From contig JBDHJS010000003.1 of the NCBI GenBank assembly GCA_039586795.1, forward strand, positions 32,001 through 96,000: 64,000 nucleotides of DNA, given 5' to 3'. The translations under genes and the position numbers were made by a program. The notes beneath the pieces are model-generated. The model was not told the origin of the DNA. It did not search any database and saw only the letters and a list, made by a program, of their open reading frames with translations. Shown here in pieces: positions 4,822-23,961 of this stretch. Numbering within the stretch: position 1 is the first letter of the stretch; every line of letters starts with the position of its first letter. Origin of the DNA: Gemmatimonadota bacterium (GTDB lineage: Bacteria > Gemmatimonadota > Gemmatimonadetes > Palauibacterales > KS3-K002).

Positions 4822-6618
4822 ATGATGAAACTCAAGCCAGCCGTCGTGTTCTCTTTGCTGCTGTTTGCTGGGTACATCTTGTCCGGTTGCGACACCGACA
4901 TGCAGCACGAGGTCGAGGATTACATCTCACGATACAACGAGCGGATGCAGGGTTTGTACTACGAGTCATCCAAGGCGGAGTGGGCATCGAACACTCATAT
5001 CGTCGAGGGTGACACGACCAACGCCGCGCGAACGCGTGCCGCCAACGAAGCATTGGCAGAGTTCGTCGGCAGTCCAGAGAACATCGAACGCATCCGGCAC
5101 TTCCTCGACAATCGGGACCGGCTGACCGAGCTCGAGGTACGCCAGCTCGAGGTAATGCTGTTTGCGGCGGCAAACCAACCGGGTACCGAGCCGGAGCTGG
5201 TCGCGAATCGTATCGCGGCGGAGACCAGACAAGTTGAGACGCTGTTCGGTTTCGATTTCAAGCTGGACGGTCGATCCATAACGCCAAACGAAATCGACGG
5301 GCTTCTGCGAAGTAGCGATGACCTGCGCGAGCGCCTGGCCGTTTGGGAGTCTTCGAAGGAGGTTGGCCCGGTACTCAAACCGGGGATCATCGAGCTTCAA
5401 CGGTTGCGGAACGAGACGGTTCGAGCCCTGGGCTACTCCGATTTCTTCGCTTATCAGGTATCCGAATACGGAATGAGCAGCGAAGAGATGCTGGAGATGA
5501 CGGGCACGCTGATAGAGCAGCTTCAGCCCTTATATCGAGAGTTGCACACCTGGGCGCGCTACGAGCTGGCGGAACGCTACGGCGAGCCGGTACCGGACAT
5601 GATACCCGCCCATTGGCTGCCCAACCGGTGGGCTCAGGACTGGACGGCACTGGTGAGCGTGGAGGGCCTCGACCTGGACGCCTCGTTGAGTGAGAAGTCG
5701 CCCGAGTGGATCGTCGAGCAAGGCGAGCAATTCTATGTCAGCCTGGGCTTCGATGAGCTGCCGGGCAGTTTTTACGAGCTGTCATCTCTGTACCCGTTGG
5801 AACCGGGAGCTGACTATAAGAAGAACACCCACGCGTCGGCATGGCACATGGACCTAGACACCGACGTGCGCTCGCTGATGAGCGTGGAGACGAACTCGTA
5901 CTGGTGGGAAACCGTCCTGCACGAGCTTGGACACGTCTACTACTTCATGAGCTACACGAATCCCGATGTGCCGCTGGTCCTACGCGAAGGCGCCAATCGC
6001 GCCTACCACGAAGGGATCGGCAGCCTCATCGGGCTCGCCTCGATGCAACGCAGCTTCCTGGTAAATCGTGGGCTTGTGGAGGCTGACGTGGAGGTCGATC
6101 AGGTCGCCCAACTGCTGCAGGAGGCACTCAACTACGTAGTGTTCATCCCGTTCTCCGCCGGCGTGATGACGCGGTTCGAGCACGCGCTGTACGCCGAGGA
6201 GCTACCCGCCGATCAACTCAACGCCCGGTGGTGGGACCTGGTGGCGGAGTATCAGGGCGTCGTGCCGCCCAATCCACGTGGCGAAGATCATGCAGACGGG
6301 CTAACGAAGACACATATCAATGACGATGCGGGTCAGTACTATGACTACGCATTGGCGAACGCGCTGCTGTTCCAATTGCACGATCACATCGCGAGGGAAC
6401 TCCTCGAACAGGACCCTTACGACACGGACTATTGGGGCTCCAGAGAAGTCGGCGAGTTCCTCCACGAACTGATGGCGCCAGGCGCGAGCCGGCCATGGCG
6501 CGAGGTGCTACAGCAAACGACCGGTCGCGAACTCGATGCTCAGGCGATGGTGGAGTACTTCCAGCCGTTATACGAATGGCTGGTAGAACAGAATCGCGGG
6601 CGGCGGCACAGCATATAA
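4822..6618 (+). CDS. M2-family metallopeptidase (peptidyl-dipeptidase A / ACE-like), lipoprotein
   Basis: HELGH zinc motif, downstream GANRAYHEGIG, IPAHWL and THASAW motifs; lipobox LSGC. Confidence 0.93.
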   Translation: MMKLKPAVVFSLLLFAGYILSGCDTDMQHEVEDYISRYNERMQGLYYESSKAEWASNTHIVEGDTTNAARTRAANEALAEFVGSPENIERIRHFLDNRDRLTELEVRQLEVMLFAAANQPGTEPELVANRIAAETRQVETLFGFDFKLDGRSITPNEIDGLLRSSDDLRERLAVWESSKEVGPVLKPGIIELQRLRNETVRALGYSDFFAYQVSEYGMSSEEMLEMTGTLIEQLQPLYRELHTWARYELAERYGEPVPDMIPAHWLPNRWAQDWTALVSVEGLDLDASLSEKSPEWIVEQGEQFYVSLGFDELPGSFYELSSLYPLEPGADYKKNTHASAWHMDLDTDVRSLMSVETNSYWWETVLHELGHVYYFMSYTNPDVPLVLREGANRAYHEGIGSLIGLASMQRSFLVNRGLVEADVEVDQVAQLLQEALNYVVFIPFSAGVMTRFEHALYAEELPADQLNARWWDLVAEYQGVVPPNPRGEDHADGLTKTHINDDAGQYYDYALANALLFQLHDHIARELLEQDPYDTDYWGSREVGEFLHELMAPGASRPWREVLQQTTGRELDAQAMVEYFQPLYEWLVEQNRGRRHSI

Positions 6619-12449: not shown

Positions 12450-12629
12450 CCTCCGCCCACAACCCGGCGACCCTAGCCGGGTGGCGACTCACTCCGCAGA
12501 TTGCAGTATGAGGCGCGTGCGTAGCGCCCTCACACATCAGCCGTAATCACCTAGCCTCAACCGGCCCAGCCCGCTCTGCAGTCGCTCGGCGGGCACGAAG
12601 TGCCTCTGACGAACACGAGTCAAGAAGAC

Positions 12630-15600
12630 ATGAGCGCGAAACTGTGGGATGTGATCATCGTTGGCGGCGGCCCAGCCGGAATCACCGCCGCGCTCAGGCT
12701 AGCCCGAGAGGACCTGGATATCCTGGTCGTCGAAGCCGCGGTCTACCCCGGAGCCGAGAACTGGTCTGGAGCGGTGTATTTCGCCGAAAACCTGGCCGAC
12801 CCTAAGGTCCTCGGAGTGGATGGGCTGGAAGCGGCCCCGTACGAAGGGCGCGTGGTCAAGCGCGGGTTTTTCTCGTGCAACGGTCTGTCGATGGCCGGGC
12901 TGGAGTATGAAAACCCGGAGACATTCAAGCACTGCTATACCGTGCTGCGGCCGGTCTACGATCGCTACCTGGCCGAGGTGGCACGTCGGGAAGGCGTCAC
13001 GTTTTTGACCGAGACGACCGTCGACGGCCTGATCCGACGGAACGACCGCGTTGTTGGCGTGCATACGGATCGCGGTCCGGTCTACGGCCAGATCGTCTTT
13101 TTGGCTGAGGGAGATGCGTCACACCTGGTGAGCAAGGAAGGCTTCGAGGGTGACGCGGTCCGCGCGAAGAAGAACGGCCAACCGGCGTTCTTGCAGGGTG
13201 TGAAGGAAGTCATCCAGCTAGAGCCGGAAGTCATCGAGGATCGGTTCGGAGTAGGGCCCGGCGAAGCGTGCTGCTACGAGATCTTGCTGAGGAACGGTGT
13301 CGTCGACGGAAAGCCAGTCCGCCTGAACATGGCGGGTCTCCTGTACACGAATCGAAACAGCGTGTCGATCGGGCTCGTGATGCCTCTGGACAACCTCGCC
13401 GAGTATCGCGGGGACTACAACGCATTGATGGAGTGGTATAAGAGCCTTCCACCGATCGCGCGCCTCATCGAAGGCGGCGAGGCCACCTCGTTCGGGGCGA
13501 AGATCATCCGCAGTGGCGGCCTGGCCGAGATGCCGCGGCTGGTCGCCGATGGCGTCGTGGTGGGCGGAGCGGCAACGGGGATCGGCGTTGACTTTCCGTA
13601 TCCGAACTTCACGGGCCCGGCCACGGCGATGGGCCGGATCTTCGCCGATGCCGTATTGAAGCTCCAGTCAGAGGGTGCGGAGCCACGGAGCGGGCAGTTG
13701 GAAGAACTGTACGTCCAGCCCTTGAAGGAAACGAGCTACTACAAGGATGTCGACTACCTCCGCGATTGGCCCGGCTTCATCGAGCACACCGATGCGCTAT
13801 TCAGCCGCCAGATCGACCTGCTGAACGGTTCGTCCTACGCAATGACTCGACCGACCCTCCGCTTTCCACACAGCTGGTGGGAGACGGTGCGGGTGGTGAG
13901 CGAGACGATGAAGGGCCGCTGGTCGAAGACACTGAAGGACCTTGCGGGTGGGTCGAAGGCGCTGCGCATGGGCCGATTGATCGCCAAGCACATGCCGGCG
14001 GCCCTGCTGCTGTCGGTCCCCAACACGCTCCTGGCGTTGATGCCGTTCGCTTATGGCAAGGGGCCAGGCAAGATCAGCCTGAGTTTCTGGGTGGACGGCG
14101 AGGAGTCGAGAACCCTCCCCTGGTACAAGCGCTGGTCGTACGCCCGGTATCGGTCGGCCCTGATGAAGGCAACAGCGATCGTCTACGCGAACGACGGTGT
14201 CCCGATCCGGACGAAGCTGGATCGCGCGATTGGCACTCTGCTGCGGCGCTTCTCGCTATGGGAAATCGTGCTCGGCGTACTCGGGGTCGCCGTATTCTGG
14301 CTAACGCGCGGCCTACAGAAGCTTAGCGACGCGATACGCTATTCCCGTAAGAAGCCGACGATCGAAGAACTCACGGCGACCTTCTACGGCAGCTGGCTGA
14401 CGCGCTGGCGCGCGATGACCGACCTGGCGCGGGCGGCGTCGACGGGCCAGACGCATGATGCGAAGCTCGGCGAGATCAGCTATGGCGGCGATGTGGGCTC
14501 GCACATCAAGGTGTTCTTCCCACCGGACAAGCCCGGTACGCTCGAAGATCCAAGCCGGTCGGCGCTCTGGAGCGTGTGCCCGGCGTCCGTCTACCAGATC
14601 AACGTCGATCGCACAATGCACGCGTCGGTTGCCGTGAACTTCGAGAACTGCGTGAAGTGCGAGACGTGCTGGCGAATCGAACCACAGCACGTGGACTGGT
14701 CACGGTTCGGAAAGCATCGTCTGACCTATGAAGTGTACACGGACGCCGACGCCTCGCTGCGGCAGCTTTTATCCGAACGTGAATTGCGTGACACGCCTGA
14801 GATAGAGCCGAGCTTTTGGAGCGCCACGCTCACGGAAGCGTGGCCCGTCGGTCACGTCGAGGCGTCCGACGCGCTACGGAGCGACATCACGAACGCGCGA
14901 CGCGCCATCGACCGGGCTGCCGCGAAGTGCAGCGAACTGAGCGATAACATCTGGCTCGGCCCGAGGGTACTGGAGCCTGGCCAGGTCAGCTGGTACATCT
15001 CGGCTCTCGAGTACTTCGCGGTACTCGCCGATGAGGCTGCCAGCGTCGCCCTATCCGAACCGATCGAAGACTGGCTGATCGAGCACGAGTTGGCAGGCGC
15101 TCATCTGGAGCTTCTGCAAGCGAAGCGGGACCTGGATCTCGTCACGCGAGGGATCCGGGAGCATGCGGGCTCCCAGAAGTTCTTCGCCGGCGAGGCCGAC
15201 GCACGACAGGCCGCCGGTCATCATCTAGCGGGCATGCGAGAGATCATCGATCGCATCGCGCTGGCCTGCCGCATCCCCGACGACTACGTCGATCCCGTGG
15301 CGGAGCTACGGAATCAGGAGCAGGAATCACCGGCGCGCGCCGCGGCCCGTGAGGAACTGCGGGAGCATCTCGCGGCCATCTTCGATCGCGGCGCGATCCG
15401 GCGGTTGGAAGATGGTGGGTCACCGGAAGGAGCAGAGATCGAGGCTCTGCGCGAGTCGACGCGGGCGGCTTTGGGGGATGAAACGCAGGGCGCATTCGAC
15501 AGCTGGGCACCGCTCACGAGGAGCGACATCCTCGGCGAGCTATCCCGCATCGACCCATCGCTCGCCATCCTCGTGGCCGGTCACCTTGAGGGACTCGCGG

Positions 15601-18600
15601 CTCTCGAGGGTGCAGGAGCTACGGCGAAGGTTATCGGACCGCTCAAGAAGGTCGAGGTGTTCGTCACCCTGGCCACGGAAGTGGCCGGGCAACCCGGCGA
15701 CGGCAAATGGAACGGAGCCTTGCCGTTCGCGCTGACGGCGTTGGCGGATCGGTTCGTTTCCCGAGGCGAAGGGCAGGTCGCCGTATTCGGGCTGAAAAGC
15801 AAAGGTGTAAAGGCCAGCATCACGCCGGCGATTGGGCTCACCGGCGCGGCGGCATCGGAGATCTTGCTCAAAGACGCCAAGCCGATGTGGTCGGGCGACT
15901 GGACGGAGGCTGACGAGACTGAACTGTTCGCAGCGCGCGTTCGCGATGCTGCGGCCATAGCTCTCGGCTCGGCGACGATACTCACCGAACGGGCAATCGA
16001 TCACGCGCGCAGTCGCATTCAATTCCCGGACATGTTCCAGGATCTGGATGGCCGCGACGGCGTTGGCAAGTTCGGCGCCGTGCGTGCGCACCTGAGCCAC
16101 ATCGAGGCTTCACGGCTGGCCATCGAAACGATACTCAACGACTGCGATTGGACCGCGGACTCGGATCTCGAGGCGATGGTTGGAAAGGTCGCGGTCACGG
16201 ATCTCTTCGGCCCCGACATGCCGAGCATCACCTATCGGGCGGGTCAGGTGATCGGCGGCTCCGCGTTCTCGGAGGAGGACATCTTCTCGAAGGCCTACCG
16301 CGACAGCTCGGTGTTCACTCACTACATCCGAGAGAACGCGGAGCTGAACGTGGAGATCGGTTCGAGGATATCCGCGGGCGACGGTTCGCTGCTGGCGACG
16401 ATCGCGCCTGACCTATCGGCGGCGCTGGACGTCGTGGCACGACGACCGATCTTCGACTTCGAGGTGAATCGCCTACGCGAGGCGGAGATGCAGTTGGCGG
16501 AGAACATGCGCGGCGTGCTCTCTCAAGGACAGGAACCAGCCGTCGCCGAGGTCGTGCACGACATCGCCGGCGAGCTGGTGACGCGACTGTATGTGTGGGC
16601 GCGCCTCATGGTGCGGGCCTACCGACGCCTGGAGGGCGCGCTCCCCGCCCAGCGTTACCTAGAGGCCGTCCAGCTATGGGCGGACATCATAGAAGAGCGT
16701 CTGCTGGGCCTCGAGGATGAGCTCGCGCAATCCGCCGCTCGAATCGAACTGGGCACCGACGCGCTTCAGTTGGACGCCTACCCCGACGAGCCGATCGCGA
16801 CCAGCGGACTCGACTTCGACCTGGACAAAGACGTCATCAAAGGTGAGGTGAACTACCGCTCCGGCGATTTCCTCTTGAAGCCGTTCCGCATCGATGAGAC
16901 CCGATACACGCCCGAGCTACAGTGGGTAGACGATGTCACCAGAAACCACTACGACGAGTATCTGAAGGAGATCCGGGAGCGCTTCCAGACCGGCAGGTAC
17001 AAGCCTTCCTTCGAACGGGAAACGGAGCGGCTTCACTGTATTCCTCGTGAGGATATCGACTGGACAGTGGACCGTGGCTACTTCCGCGTGGTGATCCCGG
17101 AGGAGTACGGCGGACAGGGTCGATCCAAAGCCGACTACTACAACCTGTGTCAGATCGCGAAGCGGCACGGCGACGTAAGTCTTACGCTCACAATCCAAGC
17201 CAACACTAGTATCGGGACCACACCAATGCTGCTGGGTCTGGATGAAGTGATAGCTGCCGAACGCGATCTCGCGGGCGCGGTCGCGAGGGCAGCCGATGTC
17301 GAGGCCGCGAAGTCAGAGATCGAAAAGCTGATCGAGATGATGTCGATGCCAGATGTCGATGCGCTGGCGAAGAAGTACATGGAGATTGACAAGAGCGTCC
17401 GCAGCTCGATCGGCAAGAGCAGGATTCTGAAAAAGGTGGTATTCGGAAAGTTCCAGTCGGCCTGGGGCAAAGCTGGGGCGGCCGGAATGAAGAAGGATCT
17501 TGTCGGTTTTCGGAAGGGCCTCGAGAAGGCGGTGGTCGCGCTGGGTGGTTGGCAGGAGCGAGTCGCAGCCGAACTCGATGAGATGCCGCGGCGTCGTATG
17601 GCCCACGAATTCTTCCTGCGGCTGATCTCGTCCCGGATCACGTCGGCCTTCTCCCTCACCGAGCCGAGCGCCGGATCAGATACGGCTCGGGTCCGTACGG
17701 AGGCGCGCCTCGACTCGCGGAGCGTGCTGACGGATGACGACGGCGTGAAACACTTCTATCTGGACGAGGATGATCCGGAAAGCCGTCGCAACCTGGCGGA
17801 CATGCGACGATTCGAGTTTGACGGGCGCCGGATACTGTATCGGTACAGCGACGACGCCGATCCTGCTGAAGTCCACTCTCAGGAATACACGTACTCGGAG
17901 GACGAGGAGAAGTATCGCTACTTCATGATCGGCGACCGACGGGTCGACATCCACGACATGGCGATCGTGCGTGAGCGTGATGGTGAAGAGGTCTACGAGT
18001 TCTTCGTGCTGAACGGCGCCAAGATGTGGATCACCAACGGCCACATCGCCGGCGTCAACGCCATCTACGCCCGGACTCCAATGGGGCTCACCGGGTTCAT
18101 GGTCGATGCGCTGACGGATGGGTTCCTAGTCGGCAAGGACGAGGAGAAGACGGGACAGCGTGGTTCACCGACGAACGAGATCGGACTCACCAACGTACGC
18201 ATCCCGCGCGAGTGCATGATCGGCATCGAGGGCCGGGGTCAGGAAAACGCGCTGGAGACGCTCAACGTCGGTCGGACGGGGCTGTGTATCTCATCGACGG
18301 CCGGCATCGACCAGGCGATCGGCGACGCGACGGCCTACCTGGAAGAGACCGGGCGGAATTCGTCAGCCGGAGTGCGCTACCGGTTGGGTCTGACGATGGA
18401 GGAGATGTATGCCGTCGAATCGATCGCCTACAACCTGGTCGGGATCTACGACGACAAGACCAGCGACATGCCGCGCGTGGAGTCATCGATTGCCAAGCTC
18501 TTCGGGACGGAAGGACTCCACCGAATGCTCCACTTCCTGGAGCCGGTGTATGGCATCGATGGTCAGACACAGCGTTACCGCATCGAGAAGGACCGACGCG

Positions 18601-21083
18601 ACGCTAGGGTGATGACGATCTACGAGGGCACGAACGAGATCCAACAGTTCCTGTTGCTGAAGGATGTGATCGACATGGTCGGGCCGAGGCTGGACAAACT
18701 CGAGGAACTGGACGTCTCGGCTGAAGACTCGGTGTTCAAAGCCGAGGTCGATGCCCTGCGCGAGATGCACGCTGCGGTCAGGGAACGGGTGAAAGAAACA
18801 CGTGCGACCTATAAGAGCGCCGCCTGGCAGCGCGCGTTGCTGCAGCCTGTGTTCTTCCGTCTGGCGCGAATGGTCGCGCTGCTGAAGACAGTGGACAGCG
18901 TTCTGCACCGCGCCGACTGGGTGGCGCGCAACCTCACGGCGGACGCGGACGCGTTCCGTCGGAGTTGGAGCGACAAGGCAGCGCGCGGCTTTGTCGCGAG
19001 AGCGCGCCGCGAGTTCATGCGGTTGGCGACGGGCTTTGATCGCGATTTCGAGACCTTGAAGGCGGGCGGCCGCACCGCCGAGTTGAAGCTGGCGGAGACG
19101 CTACTCGACGAAACGGAGATCGCCGCCGCGCACGGAAAGGCGGGCACCGGCGGGATCGAGAGGTCGCCGATCGATCGAGGTTTGGAGATCGTTGTAGCGC
19201 TGGAACGAGCGCCGCATTTGGCGCCGCGACCGCGCGTCATTGACGGCGAGCTGGCCGAGCACGTGTACGGATTCACGGCGGGAGACCGTCGTGCTCTGTC
19301 GATGGCTCTGGCTTTGAAATCGGCGTCGCCGGAGCGGGTCCGTGTGACGCTAGTATGTGCCGCGCCCGTGGAAGTGGAGGACGCGCTGCGCGCCGGGCTG
19401 GCCGCAGGCGCGGACCGGGCAATTCTGATCGACACGCGCGGGGAGTTGTACGAGGAGCATTCGGTTGCCGACGCGATCACCGGTGTTCTGCGACAACGCA
19501 ACATCGATCCCGACCTGCTTCTTTCTGGCGCGTCGGAGGACGGCCCCAGCGGGGGCCGGCTCGGCCTCAGACTCGCGAGCGAATTGGACATCGAATGGGC
19601 CCCGAACGTGACCGAGCTGTGGGTGGACGGGAGCACGGCGGTAGTGACCAGCGAACGGTTTCCCGACAGCCTCATAAAGGCGGACCTGCCTGTTGCCGCA
19701 TCGGTCGCGGGATCGGAAGGCGAGCCCGCTCCGGAGTTCACGGCCGCCGGTTTTGCGGAGGCGCTACGCAAAGACGTGGATGCCGTCCCGTTCCCAGACG
19801 ACGCGGAACGCGCCGACGAGGAGCTAGCAACGACATCAGCACAGGCGACAACTGAGTCGCATGACGATGCCGGTCGCATCGATCCAGAGCGCGCCGCCGA
19901 GCTACTGGTTGAAGTCGGCGACCTGGGAGACGGCTCCGCCGTGCCGACGGGCGAACCACATGCGGGAGCCATCGAGTCGGTCAGCGTCGACTCGTTGGAT
20001 TGGCGCGGGGTGGTCTTCATCGCCGAGATCGAAGACGACAACCTGGTTAGAGACGCCAGAGCGCCGCTCGAGGCAGCGAGCGGCCTGGCAGAACGATCCT
20101 CTCTTCCACTATCGGGTTTGGTATTGAGCGAGCGTCTGTCCGATGACCGCCGTCGAGCGATCGCCGGACGCCTCGCCGCGCACGCGCCGTTCGGGCAGAT
20201 CGTTTTCGCAGAGCACGATGCTCTGGGCGACGGCGCCTACCGCGCCTACGTCGAAGCATTGGAGAAGCTGGTGGGGCCGGAATCCAGAACGCGCCCGACC
20301 TATCTAGTATCATCGCCGTGGCTGGCCGACGCGATGCCACCGCTGGCGGAGGTGCTTCGTCGATCCGACGTCGACGCGGACGAACTGGCCGGTGTTTCGC
20401 GGGTGGAGTTCCGCGACGGCGATGGTGTCGCGTTCGTCCAACCCGCGTACGAGCGTAAGTTGAGAGCACGACGTCACCTTCCTTACGCCGCTGACGCGAT
20501 GCGGATCCTATGGTTCGAACCCGAAGTTACGTCGGAGCCAGGGGAAGCGACCTCATCGGATCCGACGGTAGTAGTGGTCGGCCTCGATCTGGACTACGAT
20601 CCGCAAACAGATGCCCTGACCGAAGCGCTGCTCGAGGCAAAGAAGGCCCTTGGTGTGGTGACGTTGGAGAACGCCGAGTTCGTCATCGACGTGGGTGCCG
20701 GCCTGGGCTCCGTCGACAATCTGGACACGGTTGTGGAGCCATTGCGCCAAGCGCTGCTCGAGCTCGGGGCGCCGCACGTACTCATCGGCGCAACCCGCAA
20801 GGTGACGATAGATATGAGCTGGCTGCCGGAAGAGCTTCAGGTCGGGCAGACCGGCGTTCGAGTGAATCCGCGTATCATGATCGCGCTGGGCGTTTCAGGC
20901 GCGCCTCAGCACATCGACTGGGTGGGCGATCGCGCGGTGATCTTCGCGTTCAACATGGATGCGCAGGCGCCGCTGATGACGCTCAACCAGAGACGTGAAC
21001 AGCCGAAGGTCTACCCGATCGTCGGCAACCTGCTCGAGACCGTCCCCCGCTTCATCAAGGCTCTGAAGCACGGACGCGATTGA
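12630..21083 (+). CDS. Giant multidomain flavoprotein: FixC/ETF-QO FAD domain + 4Fe-4S domain + two acyl-CoA dehydrogenase modules + ETF-beta + ETF-alpha
   Basis: DVIIVGGGPAG and GAENWSG; CPASVY..NCVKCETC; RSRIQF..GVGKFGAV..QVIGG..YRDS; AFSLTEPSAGSD, LNGAKMWITNG, IYEGTNEIQ; RAGLAAGADRAIL; IGATR..QVGQTG..GVSGAPQH..NMDAQAP. Continuous 8.4-kb ORF. Confidence 0.93.
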   Translation: MSAKLWDVIIVGGGPAGITAALRLAREDLDILVVEAAVYPGAENWSGAVYFAENLADPKVLGVDGLEAAPYEGRVVKRGFFSCNGLSMAGLEYENPETFKHCYTVLRPVYDRYLAEVARREGVTFLTETTVDGLIRRNDRVVGVHTDRGPVYGQIVFLAEGDASHLVSKEGFEGDAVRAKKNGQPAFLQGVKEVIQLEPEVIEDRFGVGPGEACCYEILLRNGVVDGKPVRLNMAGLLYTNRNSVSIGLVMPLDNLAEYRGDYNALMEWYKSLPPIARLIEGGEATSFGAKIIRSGGLAEMPRLVADGVVVGGAATGIGVDFPYPNFTGPATAMGRIFADAVLKLQSEGAEPRSGQLEELYVQPLKETSYYKDVDYLRDWPGFIEHTDALFSRQIDLLNGSSYAMTRPTLRFPHSWWETVRVVSETMKGRWSKTLKDLAGGSKALRMGRLIAKHMPAALLLSVPNTLLALMPFAYGKGPGKISLSFWVDGEESRTLPWYKRWSYARYRSALMKATAIVYANDGVPIRTKLDRAIGTLLRRFSLWEIVLGVLGVAVFWLTRGLQKLSDAIRYSRKKPTIEELTATFYGSWLTRWRAMTDLARAASTGQTHDAKLGEISYGGDVGSHIKVFFPPDKPGTLEDPSRSALWSVCPASVYQINVDRTMHASVAVNFENCVKCETCWRIEPQHVDWSRFGKHRLTYEVYTDADASLRQLLSERELRDTPEIEPSFWSATLTEAWPVGHVEASDALRSDITNARRAIDRAAAKCSELSDNIWLGPRVLEPGQVSWYISALEYFAVLADEAASVALSEPIEDWLIEHELAGAHLELLQAKRDLDLVTRGIREHAGSQKFFAGEADARQAAGHHLAGMREIIDRIALACRIPDDYVDPVAELRNQEQESPARAAAREELREHLAAIFDRGAIRRLEDGGSPEGAEIEALRESTRAALGDETQGAFDSWAPLTRSDILGELSRIDPSLAILVAGHLEGLAALEGAGATAKVIGPLKKVEVFVTLATEVAGQPGDGKWNGALPFALTALADRFVSRGEGQVAVFGLKSKGVKASITPAIGLTGAAASEILLKDAKPMWSGDWTEADETELFAARVRDAAAIALGSATILTERAIDHARSRIQFPDMFQDLDGRDGVGKFGAVRAHLSHIEASRLAIETILNDCDWTADSDLEAMVGKVAVTDLFGPDMPSITYRAGQVIGGSAFSEEDIFSKAYRDSSVFTHYIRENAELNVEIGSRISAGDGSLLATIAPDLSAALDVVARRPIFDFEVNRLREAEMQLAENMRGVLSQGQEPAVAEVVHDIAGELVTRLYVWARLMVRAYRRLEGALPAQRYLEAVQLWADIIEERLLGLEDELAQSAARIELGTDALQLDAYPDEPIATSGLDFDLDKDVIKGEVNYRSGDFLLKPFRIDETRYTPELQWVDDVTRNHYDEYLKEIRERFQTGRYKPSFERETERLHCIPREDIDWTVDRGYFRVVIPEEYGGQGRSKADYYNLCQIAKRHGDVSLTLTIQANTSIGTTPMLLGLDEVIAAERDLAGAVARAADVEAAKSEIEKLIEMMSMPDVDALAKKYMEIDKSVRSSIGKSRILKKVVFGKFQSAWGKAGAAGMKKDLVGFRKGLEKAVVALGGWQERVAAELDEMPRRRMAHEFFLRLISSRITSAFSLTEPSAGSDTARVRTEARLDSRSVLTDDDGVKHFYLDEDDPESRRNLADMRRFEFDGRRILYRYSDDADPAEVHSQEYTYSEDEEKYRYFMIGDRRVDIHDMAIVRERDGEEVYEFFVLNGAKMWITNGHIAGVNAIYARTPMGLTGFMVDALTDGFLVGKDEEKTGQRGSPTNEIGLTNVRIPRECMIGIEGRGQENALETLNVGRTGLCISSTAGIDQAIGDATAYLEETGRNSSAGVRYRLGLTMEEMYAVESIAYNLVGIYDDKTSDMPRVESSIAKLFGTEGLHRMLHFLEPVYGIDGQTQRYRIEKDRRDARVMTIYEGTNEIQQFLLLKDVIDMVGPRLDKLEELDVSAEDSVFKAEVDALREMHAAVRERVKETRATYKSAAWQRALLQPVFFRLARMVALLKTVDSVLHRADWVARNLTADADAFRRSWSDKAARGFVARARREFMRLATGFDRDFETLKAGGRTAELKLAETLLDETEIAAAHGKAGTGGIERSPIDRGLEIVVALERAPHLAPRPRVIDGELAEHVYGFTAGDRRALSMALALKSASPERVRVTLVCAAPVEVEDALRAGLAAGADRAILIDTRGELYEEHSVADAITGVLRQRNIDPDLLLSGASEDGPSGGRLGLRLASELDIEWAPNVTELWVDGSTAVVTSERFPDSLIKADLPVAASVAGSEGEPAPEFTAAGFAEALRKDVDAVPFPDDAERADEELATTSAQATTESHDDAGRIDPERAAELLVEVGDLGDGSAVPTGEPHAGAIESVSVDSLDWRGVVFIAEIEDDNLVRDARAPLEAASGLAERSSLPLSGLVLSERLSDDRRRAIAGRLAAHAPFGQIVFAEHDALGDGAYRAYVEALEKLVGPESRTRPTYLVSSPWLADAMPPLAEVLRRSDVDADELAGVSRVEFRDGDGVAFVQPAYERKLRARRHLPYAADAMRILWFEPEVTSEPGEATSSDPTVVVVGLDLDYDPQTDALTEALLEAKKALGVVTLENAEFVIDVGAGLGSVDNLDTVVEPLRQALLELGAPHVLIGATRKVTIDMSWLPEELQVGQTGVRVNPRIMIALGVSGAPQHIDWVGDRAVIFAFNMDAQAPLMTLNQRREQPKVYPIVGNLLETVPRFIKALKHGRD

Positions 21084-22605
21084 GCGGGAGGACGCCAAAG
21101 CGCCGGGCGAGAAGCCAGAGCAGCGATCCAGCTCCGATGACGACGAACAGGCAACGGAGCATCGTCCACGTTATGTCCGCACCCAGCCCAACCTCCGACT
21201 CCGGAACGAACCGCAGAACAAGGGCGACGGCGAGGAACACGATTGCGTAGGGCGCTAGGATAGATGCGATGAACGAGGCCGCCCTCACACCCGGCATCTC
21301 CAGTGCCCTGATCGCGGCGACCATGGTCAACGCGGAGTACGCCAGATAACCTGCTGCGGCGCCCCACGCTACACCGACGAGCCCGTACCCACCGAGAATC
21401 ATGCCGGTCACGGCTCCGCCGGCTATTACGATCGCCGCGACCGTGAGGGCGACCAACTGTTTCTGCCTGTTGAGCGATACGAGAACAACTTGCGGCATGC
21501 GCGTCAGCACCATGAAGAAGATCGCCGCAATGAGGACCTTCCCGGGAGTAATCGTCGGCGTGTACCTGGGCAGCAGCCAAACGATCGGCAGGTGAAAGGA
21601 CAGGAAGAGGAGACCCAGCACCGGGCTGGCGAAATAGCTGAGAACCAGGCTGGGTCTCGTCAGGAAATCTTGAAGCTCACCGACCTCTTTCACTCTGGCG
21701 CTCTTCTCCATGAGGCGAGGATACAGCACGACCGAAACTGCCTCGGGCACCAGCATAACGGAAACGACGAGATACGAACCCAGAGCATAGATTCCCATGC
21801 TCTCACGTGACATGAATATCCAGACGGCGATCTTGTCTACGTTCCATAATGTGATCAGCAGAGCGCCTGCAATCATGATCGGGAAGCCGATTCGCAGCAG
21901 TTCCCTCAGGGCGTCAAGATTCCACCGTGGACGAACGAACGGCGTGCTTCCTCCGCCCGCCCATAACAAAGCAGCGGCATATGAAAAGATCACGGCGACC
22001 AGAAAACCAGGCAGTCCGTAGCGCAGCGCTGCGAGTACCCCACCGACGCTAGACAGAAGCGCGAAGCCGACCATGATTCGCCCAGCCTGACCGAACCGCT
22101 TCCTGGCTCGCAACTTGACGTGCGCGAACCAATACAGTTGAGCCAGCGCGTGTAAAACGGCGAGCATCAGCCATGCAACGCGCAACTCCGTCGACCAACC
22201 CCGCAAGAAGGTTAGCACGAATGCGGCGATCACAATCGCAAAGACCGCCGCACTGAGCATCGAGAACCCGAACACCGTGCTCTCGATCCCGCTCGCCCGC
22301 TCCTCGTTTCCAGCGCCCGCCGCATGAGCCACTTCACGAAGCAGCGCTTCGTTAACGCCTAGTTGTCCGTATTGGAGGAACTGGAGCGCGATCTTTATCT
22401 GTGACCAGACACCGAACAGCGCCGGCCCCAGGACCCGCGCGAGCAGCAACCCGCGCAGCAGGAAGAGGAACTCAGAGAGGTAACGCGCGATGGAATAGTC
22501 CGAGAAGTGCGCCCAGACAGACCGTTCGCTATCCGCGAGGTCCAATACCGCGGGCGCGGTGCGGCCGCCCGTTTCATCGTTAGCAGCAGGGGGCAATTCG
22601 GACAT
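21055..22605 (-). CDS. Polysaccharide flippase (Wzx/MOP superfamily)
   Basis: About 13-14 TMs; LARVLGPALFG; LLRIGFP..NVDK..MGIYA motif. Confidence 0.85.
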   Translation of the reverse strand: MSELPPAANDETGGRTAPAVLDLADSERSVWAHFSDYSIARYLSEFLFLLRGLLLARVLGPALFGVWSQIKIALQFLQYGQLGVNEALLREVAHAAGAGNEERASGIESTVFGFSMLSAAVFAIVIAAFVLTFLRGWSTELRVAWLMLAVLHALAQLYWFAHVKLRARKRFGQAGRIMVGFALLSSVGGVLAALRYGLPGFLVAVIFSYAAALLWAGGGSTPFVRPRWNLDALRELLRIGFPIMIAGALLITLWNVDKIAVWIFMSRESMGIYALGSYLVVSVMLVPEAVSVVLYPRLMEKSARVKEVGELQDFLTRPSLVLSYFASPVLGLLFLSFHLPIVWLLPRYTPTITPGKVLIAAIFFMVLTRMPQVVLVSLNRQKQLVALTVAAIVIAGGAVTGMILGGYGLVGVAWGAAAGYLAYSALTMVAAIRALEMPGVRAASFIASILAPYAIVFLAVALVLRFVPESEVGLGADITWTMLRCLFVVIGAGSLLWLLARRFGVLPLNRVRASEP

Positions 22606-22731: not shown

Positions 22732-23961
22732 TCAGGAGGGATCGTGAATGACGCCGATGAAGAGGATGGTGCCGGAGAAGCGTTCACGGATCGCGAAGAG
22801 AAACGGCCTATCGACACGCACAGCCATCGGCGCGCTGGTAACACCCACCTCGACAGAGGTGACAGCGGCCGCCTCGGTGCCCTCTTCGTTGACATCGACA
22901 AAGGTCTTGTGTTTGACTTTGCTGATGAAGAGCTGAGCCTGGTCGTTGATCCTGGAGAAATCGGCGTTCAGTTCGTCGAAGGCGATCTCCATGCCGAGGG
23001 CCTTCAGCGCTTCGTTCAACTCGATCTCGTACTCGAGGGTGAACTTGGGGAGGTACACCTCCATTTCAGCGGCCAGCAGCCCGTCGATCCAACCCTGCCA
23101 TGTGGCCGCGTCAATCGAAGCGACCAGCGAATCGATGTCACGACCACGGTCCGGCAGAACGATCGTCATGCTATACGCCTTACCGCCATACGGAAGGTCG
23201 GCTACAAGAACGCCTTCATCGTAGTAGGATCGCAATTCCGCTTCGCCGCCGTGGGTCATCATCGGCACCTGGACCGTACCGCCGTCGGCCAGGGTGAAGA
23301 CGCCAGGCGCGGTCCGATCCGGATCGAATTGGGTGGTCCAGTTCCCCTTGAAGTAGATGGCATTGATGAGGAACATGATGATCTCGGGCGCGATCGCATC
23401 GACAATCTCACTGATCCGACCGTTGGTTTTATCGTCTACCCAGCTGTTGATGATCCCCGGTGCGCCAGGGTCGTCGAAGTCGAGCGTCGCCACCTCGGCG
23501 TCGAAGTGCTCGATGTTTACATCGATGAAATCCTGTTCGACGGGAAAGTTCTCACGAATCCAGATCGAGTTGGCCAGAGTGAACTGCACGGAAGAGTCGA
23601 GGTTAGCAAGAAGATCGATCAGGCTGCGATAGGAGTCGTTTACGTCATCGATCGATAGCCCCTGTAGCTCGAGCGTCTCTTGCATAGCCTCGAGCGTTGT
23701 GCCATCGGCGCCGTTGTATACCATGCCGAGCGCCATGGCGACGCTGAGCGGTGATAGAAAGATGTTGGCACCAACTTCCTCGCCCTGATGAACTTCGCGG
23801 AAGAGCTTGAGGCCGAAGCTGTTGTCCGACTCGATGAGCTGCTCTTCACCCGCTTCGAGGTCGCGAGGAAGCCCTTCGATCTGCGGATTCTGGATATCTT
23901 CGTCGCATCCCAGCGCGACCAGCACCCAAAGACCCGCTACGATAGCTGTGAGTCGTCTCAT
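22732..23961 (-). CDS. Serpin (I4 protease inhibitor), lipoprotein
   Basis: NIFLSPLS, NAIYFKGNW, hinge EEGTEAAA, DRPFLFAIRE..GTILFIG; lipobox ALGC. Confidence 0.96.
   Translation of the reverse strand: MRRLTAIVAGLWVLVALGCDEDIQNPQIEGLPRDLEAGEEQLIESDNSFGLKLFREVHQGEEVGANIFLSPLSVAMALGMVYNGADGTTLEAMQETLELQGLSIDDVNDSYRSLIDLLANLDSSVQFTLANSIWIRENFPVEQDFIDVNIEHFDAEVATLDFDDPGAPGIINSWVDDKTNGRISEIVDAIAPEIIMFLINAIYFKGNWTTQFDPDRTAPGVFTLADGGTVQVPMMTHGGEAELRSYYDEGVLVADLPYGGKAYSMTIVLPDRGRDIDSLVASIDAATWQGWIDGLLAAEMEVYLPKFTLEYEIELNEALKALGMEIAFDELNADFSRINDQAQLFISKVKHKTFVDVNEEGTEAAAVTSVEVGVTSAPMAVRVDRPFLFAIRERFSGTILFIGVIHDPS

Follow-up and report, generated by a model that had tools for sequence, protein, structure and literature searches.

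Can the whole route from acyl-CoA to quinone be housed in one polypeptide? Acyl-CoA dehydrogenase (ACAD), electron transfer flavoprotein (ETF), and quinone reductase are normally five or six separate proteins. The relay from ACAD through ETF to ETF-quinone oxidoreductase (ETF-QO) is found in every textbook, and defects in it underlie multiple acyl-CoA dehydrogenase deficiency in humans. The partners meet only transiently, and the transfer relies on an ETF domain which swings and is hard to trap. The question is raised by a stretch of 64,000 nucleotides from a Gemmatimonadota bacterium (contig JBDHJS010000003.1), called the window in the following, in which one giant gene appears to join all these parts.

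The gene lies in a frame on the forward strand that runs from window position 12600 to 21083 and encodes 2,827 residues from a GTG at 12600 or 2,817 residues from an ATG at 12630. An earlier note, made from the letters of the window, had claimed one uninterrupted open reading frame (ORF) between 12630 and 21083, and the translation indeed contains no internal stop. The parts which the note had listed are all present and in the order given, as seen with Pfam, NCBIfam, profiles, and structure models. Since the database copy of the same protein (P0002) has 2,817 residues and M11 is invariant in an alignment of 36 homologues, the ATG is likely the true start. Residue numbers follow the 2,827-residue frame with the GTG start, in which the Met at ATG 12630 is M11.

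We consider it probable, judging from sequence and homology, that the protein is a single-chain, non-bifurcating acyl-CoA:quinone oxidoreductase for fatty-acid β-oxidation, with menaquinone as the probable quinone. Its architecture varies a known electron-transfer chain in a new way; the protein is uncharacterised, and bacteria that have not been cultured carry it widely. The self-contained chain that the note had proposed is supported by computation, as a catalytic ACAD, the site of an electron-transferring flavin adenine dinucleotide (ET-FAD), an iron–sulphur (FeS) cluster motif, and a FixC/EtfC-like fold all appear intact. The coordinates of the features are collected in Table 1.

Domains, cofactor sites, and the proposed electron path

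Two stretches of the protein are related to ACADs, and both modules claimed in the note are real ACAD folds; only the second can be catalytic, as a catalytic Glu is found there in 43 of 43 aligned rows and not at all in the first. Module 2 is matched above cut-off by the three Pfam families Acyl-CoA_dh_N (1464-1544), Acyl-CoA_dh_M (1791-1866), and Acyl-CoA_dh_1 (1878-2016). Its nearest relatives in profile searches are ACAD9 (E 4e-34) and CarC (E 7e-34). The catalytic residue is E2009, within the motif IYEGTNE. The flavin-ring loops LTEPxAGSD (T1687-D1694) and KMWITN (from K1808) are invariant, and G1813 is near-invariant (at least 90% of rows). The stretch equivalent to RxQF varies between members, 11-13 of the 43 rows having gaps there, and the position of GQxxGGxxxSExD reads EPVYGIDG. 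Gaps between the matched stretches point to two family-specific insertions in this module, at about 1545-1670 and 1700-1795.

Module 1 is far more divergent. Region 700-1460 gives a sub-threshold Pfam match only, and the module has no Pfam match in a search with the whole protein. A family profile of the same region matches very-long-chain acyl-CoA dehydrogenase (VLCAD) at E 4e-11. The AlphaFold model of the module 1 region has a predicted local distance difference test score (pLDDT) of 86.7 and a predicted template modelling score (pTM) of 0.85. In Foldseek, this model finds VLCAD 3b96 (E 3e-11 over 575 columns), together with ACAD9, FadE5, and similar chains. As modelled, module 1 is thus a complete but divergent VLCAD-like ACAD fold. 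Kinship between the two modules is visible solely by profiles and folds, as BLASTP of one against the other gives E 0.21 only. Repeats within the gene are likewise limited to short, chance-level matches.

The motifs of module 1 are the reverse of those in module 2. Its RxQFP motif is kept in all rows (R1139, Q1141, and F1142 in 42 of 42), and the conserved positions of GQxxGGxxxSExD (G1215, Q1216, G1220, S1224, E1225, and D1227) are each kept in 41-42 of the 42. At the column aligned with the catalytic Glu, no row has Glu; the residues are Leu (35), Tyr (4), Met (2), and Ile (1). The flavin-ring motifs are not conserved either, since the stretch from residue 3 of the segment to G380 lacks invariant columns, and its near-invariant positions are limited to four leucines. 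In ACAD dimers, RxQFP and GQxxGG bind the FAD of the partner subunit.

A division of this kind is described for the mycobacterial α2β2 ACADs such as ChsE4-ChsE5, where, according to excerpts of PMC11153573, the isoalloxazine, the Glu, and the substrate site belong to the α subunit, and the ADP-ribose part of the FAD is held by the β subunit. Because the motif split mirrors that division, module 2 would be α-like and module 1 β-like. By this analogy, the two modules look like an intramolecular pseudo-heterodimer built around one FAD and one active site. A complex prediction with module 1 (895-1239), module 2 (1455-2030), and FAD scored 0.83, compared with 0.00 for the best of three controls; the mark applied is reached by 116 of 157 solved complexes and by 2 of 215 mismatched pairs. 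At least 96% of contacts are shared between the runs, and the partner pLDDT is at least 85. In the predicted complex, residues 1140-1143 and 1212-1226 of module 1, which coincide with its two conserved motifs, contact the AGSD loop (1691-1694), W1810, and residues 2006-2013 of module 2. The segment that follows module 2 may be helical and VLCAD-like, by analogy, because the extension of module 1 aligns to the C-terminal domain of VLCAD.

The C-terminal fifth resembles ETF. Pfam places an ETF match at 2223-2392 and ETF_alpha (PF00766) at 2689-2772 (62 bits, cut-off 27), both above cut-off. A profile of residues 2195-2827 covers whole EtfA chains, with CarE 6fah_A (E 4e-34), 5ol2_A, 7koe_B, and human 1efv_A among the matches, and it also finds EtfB 4kpu_B (E 2e-25). 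The FAD motifs of EtfA domain II (GATRK, QIGQTG, and SGAPQH) align to those of human and bacterial EtfA, and R2733, Q2750, G2752, S2766, G2767, and H2771 are invariant. Judged by these residues, the ET-FAD site of the EtfA part is intact.

The EtfB-like part is much less conserved, with one invariant and four near-invariant columns. Its nucleotide loop (2310-2320), which reads G(R/K)QAIDGDTxQVG in 4kpu_B, 6fah_B, and 5ol2_B, is variable and has gaps in 8-23 of 42 rows. Passages of PMC10734219 name the motifs of group 2 (bifurcating) ETFs as RxGV and GxxSPTxV in the small subunit and RPxFGG, with an essential Arg, in the large subunit. In the 42 rows, RP.FGG does not occur, and Arg stands at its column in three; for RxGV, the Arg is present in five, and the seven commonest residues at its Gly column do not include Gly; a single row has SPT. 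As the three motifs are missing and the EtfB loop is not conserved, we conclude from the alignment that the ETF unit is probably non-bifurcating and has one working FAD, i.e., that it would act as a plain one-electron shuttle.

The N-terminal domain is FixC-like. Residues 11-403 match the NCBIfam models PRK10015 (E 2e-45) and FixC PRK10157 (E 6e-44), both below the curated cut-offs of 466 and 610 bits, and the best sequence match in the PDB is 7koe_C (E 3e-29). Pfam FAD families match from residue 17 onwards, and G22, G24, and G27 of the GxGxxG motif are invariant. The AlphaFold model of residues 11-720 (pLDDT 88, pTM 0.89) again finds 7koe_C as the best Foldseek match (E 3e-29, TM score 0.87 on the target, root-mean-square deviation 2.9), followed by porcine ETF-QO 2gmh (E 5e-20). 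In the model, the domain thus has the Rossmann and overall fold of the FixC type. Its binding and reduction of quinone are presumed, on account of homology and a conserved hydrophobic helix.

That helix lies in an insertion between the FixC-like and FixX-like parts, where hydropathy peaks at 467-485 (nucleotides 13998-14054) and at 551-569 (nucleotides 14250-14306). Segment 551-569 is hydrophobic (Kyte–Doolittle value at least 1.5) in 37 of 42 family rows, whereas segment 467-485 is so in four rows only, all in the Gemmatimonadota clade. A transmembrane hairpin is therefore not supported for the family as a whole. Since a single spanning helix would separate the FixC-like from the FixX-like part, the anchor is probably monotopic or re-entrant and formed by the one conserved helix. 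The membrane docking suggested in the note would probably take this form.

The FeS domain is recognised by Fer4_ETF_QO (PF05187) at residues 659-700, with 21.7 bits in the whole protein and 25.2 bits on the segment alone (cut-off 24). It aligns weakly to EtfX (7koe_D) and to ETF-QO; CWRIEP in this protein stands for CRIVCP in EtfX and CDIKDP in ETF-QO, and the Cys of VCP in 7koe_D is a Glu here. C660, C684, C687, and C690 are invariant in the family, with no further Cys nearby. The region thus lacks the eight Cys ligands of the two-cluster FixX/EtfX pattern and has the single-cluster motif CPAxVY...CxxCxxC of ETF-QO. Because of the four invariant Cys, one [4Fe-4S] cluster is expected, as in ETF-QO.

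Taken together, the following path is proposed. Acyl-CoA would be oxidised at the sole functional ACAD site, where module 2 would hold the isoalloxazine and provide the base E2009, and the catalytically dead module 1, packed against it, would hold the ADP part of the same FAD. The electrons would pass singly to the ET-FAD on the mobile domain II of EtfA, from there to the one [4Fe-4S] cluster, which lies in the FixX-like domain, then to the FAD of the FixC-like domain, and finally to quinone at the membrane, where the conserved hydrophobic helix in the insertion probably holds the protein. Three FADs and one [4Fe-4S] cluster would be expected per chain. Domain identities, motif conservation, and fold matches are computed results; we infer the transfer order, the acceptor, the direction, the docking of domain II at two sites of its own chain, and the contact with the membrane.

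Table 1 Features of the giant gene in the window (residues in the 2,827-residue frame)
Feature	Residues	Positions	Strand	Basis
Whole gene (stop codon 21081-21083)		12630..21083	+	ORF listing and translation
FixC/EtfC-like FAD domain, presumed quinone-reducing flavin	11-440	12630..13919	+	NCBIfam, PDB, model, Foldseek
Helical insertion between FixC-like and FixX-like parts	441-640	13920..14519	+	Hydropathy; long helices in the model
FixX/ETF-QO-like ferredoxin domain, [4Fe-4S] motif C660, C684, C687, C690		14520..14729	+	Fer4_ETF_QO
Helical bundle, role unassigned	~757-890	14868..15269	+	AlphaFold helices (58-190 of the modelled segment); no family match
ACAD module 1, VLCAD-like fold without catalytic Glu	~895-1390	15282..16769	+	Profile, model, motif counts
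ACAD module 2, predicted catalytic acyl-CoA dehydrogenase	1455-2030	16962..18689	+	Pfam N/M/C, profile, motifs
C-terminal extension of module 2	2031-2194	18690..19181	+	No significant Pfam match; by analogy with module 1
EtfB-like domain	2195-2400	19182..19799	+	PF01012, 60.7 bits; 4kpu_B profile, E 2e-27
Acidic linker between EtfB-like and EtfA-like parts	2401-2470	19800..20009	+	Sequence; unaligned to ETF chains
EtfA-like part: domain I and FAD-binding domain II	~2471-2685 and 2686-2827	20010..21080	+	Profile; ETF_alpha

Acceptor, direction, and competing readings

The assignment to β-oxidation draws on gene neighbourhoods in related genomes. At 5 of 43 loci, from Gemmataceae and relatives, the giant gene directly follows a same-strand gene for a FadB-like enoyl-CoA hydratase/3-hydroxyacyl-CoA dehydrogenase. 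This gene is in turn preceded by a thiolase gene in four of these loci and by an acyl-CoA synthetase gene in two. In the Gemmataceae-type loci L029 (2223-7874), L030, L031, L065, and L068, the giant gene ends an apparent operon with acyl-CoA synthetase, thiolase, and FadB-like genes. By gene content, loci of the L029 type are β-oxidation operons in which the giant gene takes the position of FadE.

The host genome (4.68 Mb, 97.8% complete) also holds the separate parts. A stand-alone EtfA (354-residue frame, contig C53:15148-15396), a classical ETF-QO-like gene (580-residue frame, contig C91:88378-88632), seven further PF00441 (ACAD C-terminal domain) matches, and FadB-like genes were found. 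Since these separate EtfA, ETF-QO, ACAD, and FadB-like genes are present, the giant protein would be an extra, dedicated system.

Two MqnA/MqnD-family genes of the futalosine pathway are present in the host genome, and the acceptor is therefore likely menaquinone. MenA gave a sub-threshold match only. COQ7 was not found in this genome, a result that is uninformative because the control was detected in Caulobacter only. Excerpts of PMC10734219 and PMC5861303 place menaquinone at -70 to -74 mV, and the latter gives -10 mV for the crotonyl-CoA/butyryl-CoA couple. Under standard conditions, acyl-CoA oxidation with menaquinone would thus be uphill. Respiration may provide the pull that the enzyme needs, or its physiological direction may be the reverse one.

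Reversal in vivo is the main rival, although we regard it as unlikely. The protein would then be a menaquinol:enoyl-CoA reductase of anoxic sediment bacteria, serving as a quinol-fed terminal reductase or in a step of reverse β-oxidation. The potentials favour this direction if menaquinone is the partner (-74 mV versus -10 mV, in the same passages of PMC10734219 and PMC5861303). The futalosine-pathway genes and the label of sediment metagenome on the runs that hold the gene are in line with it, and the sequence itself fixes no direction. However, the upstream acyl-CoA synthetase, thiolase, and FadB genes of the Gemmataceae type resemble a catabolic fad operon, and no fermentative or reductive context was seen at the loci. 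β-Oxidation through ETF to menaquinone also occurs in aerobic bacteria that have menaquinone only. If the reverse direction were true, sediment bacteria would have a quinol-linked terminal reductase that has so far gone unrecognised.

A second rival accepts oxidation by the fused enzyme and changes the substrate to another thioester (amino-acid-derived, aromatic, steroid-like, or carrier-protein-bound), for which the module 2 insertions would shape a special pocket. The two insertions, as read from the gaps, and the absence of a β-oxidation neighbour at 38 of 43 loci would fit. One-site α2β2 ACADs are, moreover, known for bulky steroid-CoA, according to parts of PMC11153573. We give this reading a small chance, since the best sequence relatives are of the ACAD9/VLCAD and butyryl-CoA dehydrogenase types and CarC, a caffeyl-CoA reductase, and the sole conserved metabolic neighbours found are fadD-, fadA-, and fadB-like genes.

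Improbable to a still greater degree is a bifurcating or confurcating enzyme of the Fix/EtfABCX type with an attached ACAD and with NADH and ferredoxin or flavodoxin as further partners. The nearest solved relatives of three parts do come from bifurcating complexes (7koe_C, CarC/CarE in 6fah, and Bcd-Etf in 5ol2), and the folds of EtfA domain I and EtfB are kept. Against this stand the family-wide absence of the three bifurcating-FAD motifs counted above, the variable and gapped nucleotide loop of EtfB, and the single FeS cluster.

Several further points weigh against the acyl-CoA:quinone oxidoreductase proposed here. The gene in the window has no metabolic neighbours; a UDG-family gene lies upstream and a convergent polysaccharide-synthesis gene downstream. 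No neighbour conserved across phyla was found among the 43 loci, and synteny is seen within lineages only. The separate EtfA and ETF-QO and the seven PF00441 matches leave the need for a fused enzyme unexplained, and the uphill step to menaquinone counts on the same side. The single conserved hydrophobic helix (37 of 42 rows) would allow more than one membrane topology. The prediction of the ACAD complex may owe its pass to the solved ACAD dimers and is a likeness, not a proof of binding. The EtfB loop also deviates in the AMP-binding ETF 1o94_C, and AMP may therefore still be bound here.

Finally, an assembly chimera or a decaying, non-functional fusion is refuted: although frame changes or N runs interrupt six of the loci and no single sequencing-run contig spans the gene, the ORF is uninterrupted in 42 independent assemblies, the breaks include N gaps or scattered frameshifts, all parts are 53-74% identical to their nearest relatives, the catalytic and cofactor residues are invariant, and three sediment runs contain pieces that are identical to the window.

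Conservation and distribution of the fusion

A search of proteins of 1554-4948 residues returned 455 homologues at E<=1e-3. Among the 120 listed, lengths range from 1758 to 3036 residues, and most are full-length. More than 100 full-length homologues (2,470-3,036 residues) occur in Gemmatimonadota, Verrucomicrobiota, Planctomycetota, Acidobacteriota, and Nitrospirota, all of them from metagenome-assembled genomes (MAGs). Their names, where given, do not go beyond "FAD-binding protein," "acyl-CoA dehydrogenase family protein," or "electron transfer flavoprotein-quinone oxidoreductase." When 1.84 billion representatives were searched with a profile of residues 700-1460, the family-specific region, 123 clusters matched at E<=1e-30, and in full-length matches, the region lies at about 690-1470.

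A scan with one genome per species gave 68 related loci, and every one of them has MAG or uncultured in its title. Their sources are Gemmatimonadota, Verrucomicrobiia, Planctomycetia/Gemmataceae, Acidobacteriota, and Nitrospirota as well as a few bins labelled otherwise. An uninterrupted ORF of at least 2400 residues is present in 42 of the 68. Frame changes break L002, L006, L034, L050, L058, and L064 as well as L068, and N runs are also found in L002, L006, and L034; misassembly and naturally split genes were rejected on these grounds. What the note had named as grounds against the fusion (in-frame stops, misassembly, or homologues that are always split) did not turn up, as the frame has no internal stop and the 42 loci are unbroken. 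Other full-length fusions, for which it had suggested a search, do exist, and fusion is the rule among the homologues. By its sequence record, the fusion is a conserved family across at least five phyla and not an artefact.

A quick maximum-likelihood tree was built from 43 full-length proteins. In it, Nitrospirota, Verrucomicrobiota, Acidobacteriota, and Gemmatimonadota form one clade each (SH-aLRT 100), and Planctomycetota appear in about four places. Judged from this tree, the fusion is thus old and mostly inherited within lineages. In the phylum to which the window belongs, it is rare. The related-locus scan found nine Gemmatimonadota loci (L001-L009) from eight MAGs. Neither P0001 (E<=1e-100) nor profile A2 (E<=1e-30) detected the fusion in 300 other sampled Gemmatimonadota genomes; the P0001 search ran with a stricter filter, so that its count is a floor. 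As far as these searches reach, the gene is confined to few lineages.

Shorter relatives were also seen. In some full-length classes (P0234, P0236, P0252, and loci L010, L016, L018-L022, and L024), module 1 is partial and consists mainly of the C-terminal α-domain with RxQF and GQxxGG. These proteins have about 2,285-2,340 residues, or about 2,480-2,560 in Verrucomicrobiia, where a region of 391 residues in the window protein is reduced to 258. That the short classes keep the C-terminal α-domain of module 1 fits this part being what matters. Stand-alone module 1 proteins were not found in convincing form; the short profile matches begin or end at protein termini, like gene fragments.

The members of a second group (P0174, P0179, P0181, P0204, and P0205) are about 1,640-1,710 residues long and combine a FixC-like N-terminus with parts of the helical regions. 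P0179 and P0204 carry an EtfB-type ETF domain near the C-terminus, and none of the five has an ACAD or ETF_alpha Pfam match. This group may represent a different architecture or a naturally split form.

Pieces of the gene were looked up in sequencing runs as well. Metagenome contigs identical to the window come at low depth from three sediment-metagenome runs of three studies and give weak support for presence. Three near-identical pieces from one RNA-library run are a hint of transcription at most. The contigs over the gene are short and of low depth; none spans the gene, none is listed across the junction of module 2 and EtfB, and continuity is neither proven nor disproven by them. At 17746-18042, metagenome contigs pile up to a summed depth of 75-270, against about 0-5 elsewhere. 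This interval includes the KMWITNG codons (residues 1808-1814, nucleotides 18021-18041). Many of the contigs are 90-95% alike and end in unlike sequence, and the peak probably reflects ACADs of other organisms rather than a feature of the gene.

Relation to known systems and neighbouring genes

A close parallel to the electron path is Fix/EtfABCX (7KOE of T. maritima and FixABCX of Azotobacter), which likewise combines a FixC/EtfC flavoprotein, a FixX-like ferredoxin, EtfB, and EtfA. Passages of PMC10734219 describe the FeS clusters and the EtfC FAD of the T. maritima complex as a high-potential path from the ET-FAD to menaquinone; the fused protein would share this wire from ET-FAD through FeS and EtfC FAD to menaquinone. 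Fix/EtfABCX consists of four subunits instead of one chain and has two [4Fe-4S] clusters instead of one. Its bifurcating-FAD motifs are absent here. It has no ACAD and takes NADH as the donor, whereas the donor here is presumably acyl-CoA. The fused protein in turn has an insertion of about 200 residues with a hydrophobic helix between the FixC-like and FixX-like parts.

The ACAD–EtfAB–ETF-QO system of mitochondria and proteobacteria (2GMH) follows the same logic of electron flow with a non-bifurcating ETF. ETF-QO has the same single-cluster Cys pattern and a related FAD domain (Foldseek E 5e-20), although the N-terminal part of the fused protein is nearer to FixC. In that system, ACAD, ETF, and ETF-QO are separate soluble and membrane proteins which meet by diffusion; here they are fused.

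For the ACAD pair, the subunits of ChsE4-ChsE5 (FadE26-FadE27) show the same motif split, with Glu, ring, and substrate on one partner and only the ADP-ribose on the other, as sections of PMC11153573 report. They are encoded by two genes instead of a tandem fusion, and the modules here are VLCAD/ACAD9-like with C-terminal extensions; the two systems are likened by the motif split within the ACAD family.

Bcd-EtfAB (5OL2) and CarCDE (6FAH) also have an ACAD-family enzyme permanently tied to EtfAB. In sequence, they match the EtfA part best and rank among the best matches for module 2. In contrast to the protein described here, which lacks the bifurcation motif and has a quinone reductase attached, they are soluble, bifurcating, NADH-driven, and enoyl-CoA-reducing. 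SaETF of Sulfolobus acidocaldarius has EtfB followed by EtfA in one polypeptide, as here, according to excerpts of PMC12042025. It is a stand-alone bifurcating ETF with two FADs, whereas EtfBA here forms the C-terminal fifth of a far larger protein without bifurcation motifs. A ferredoxin domain fused to CarE, mentioned in a portion of PMC5861303, is a further partial precedent.

No description of the full fusion was found in a full-text literature search, which did not cover the 2017 J Bacteriol classification of the ETF family. The search gave partial precedents only, in agreement with the note, whose author knew of no characterised protein with the full architecture. The family may have escaped study because all of the carriers found are uncultured. 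It is conceivable but doubtful that the protein represents all of the following at once: the first natural dehydrogenase, ETF, and quinone reductase in one chain; a single-FAD ACAD pseudo-dimer; a cofactor-less EtfB scaffold; and a reversible or reverse menaquinol:enoyl-CoA reductase in menaquinone-only hosts.

A natural single-chain version fixes stoichiometry and partners. It would be a good object for cryo-electron microscopy and for the kinetics of the whole path, and redox reactions driven by acyl-CoA or quinol could be engineered with it as a compact module. The tandem modules would be a second, independent route to one-site ACAD pairs, by fusion rather than by two genes. The family also raises the question of how menaquinone-based bacteria manage the uphill step from acyl-CoA to menaquinone.

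In the window, the 3' end of the gene overlaps the 3' end of the convergent polysaccharide-biosynthesis ORF (21055-22605, reverse strand) by 29 nucleotides (21055-21083). Two genes nearby belong to families better known from animals, i.e., an angiotensin-converting-enzyme-type peptidase M2 at 4822-6618 on the forward strand (E 7e-97) and a serpin at 22732-23961 on the reverse strand (E 4e-112).

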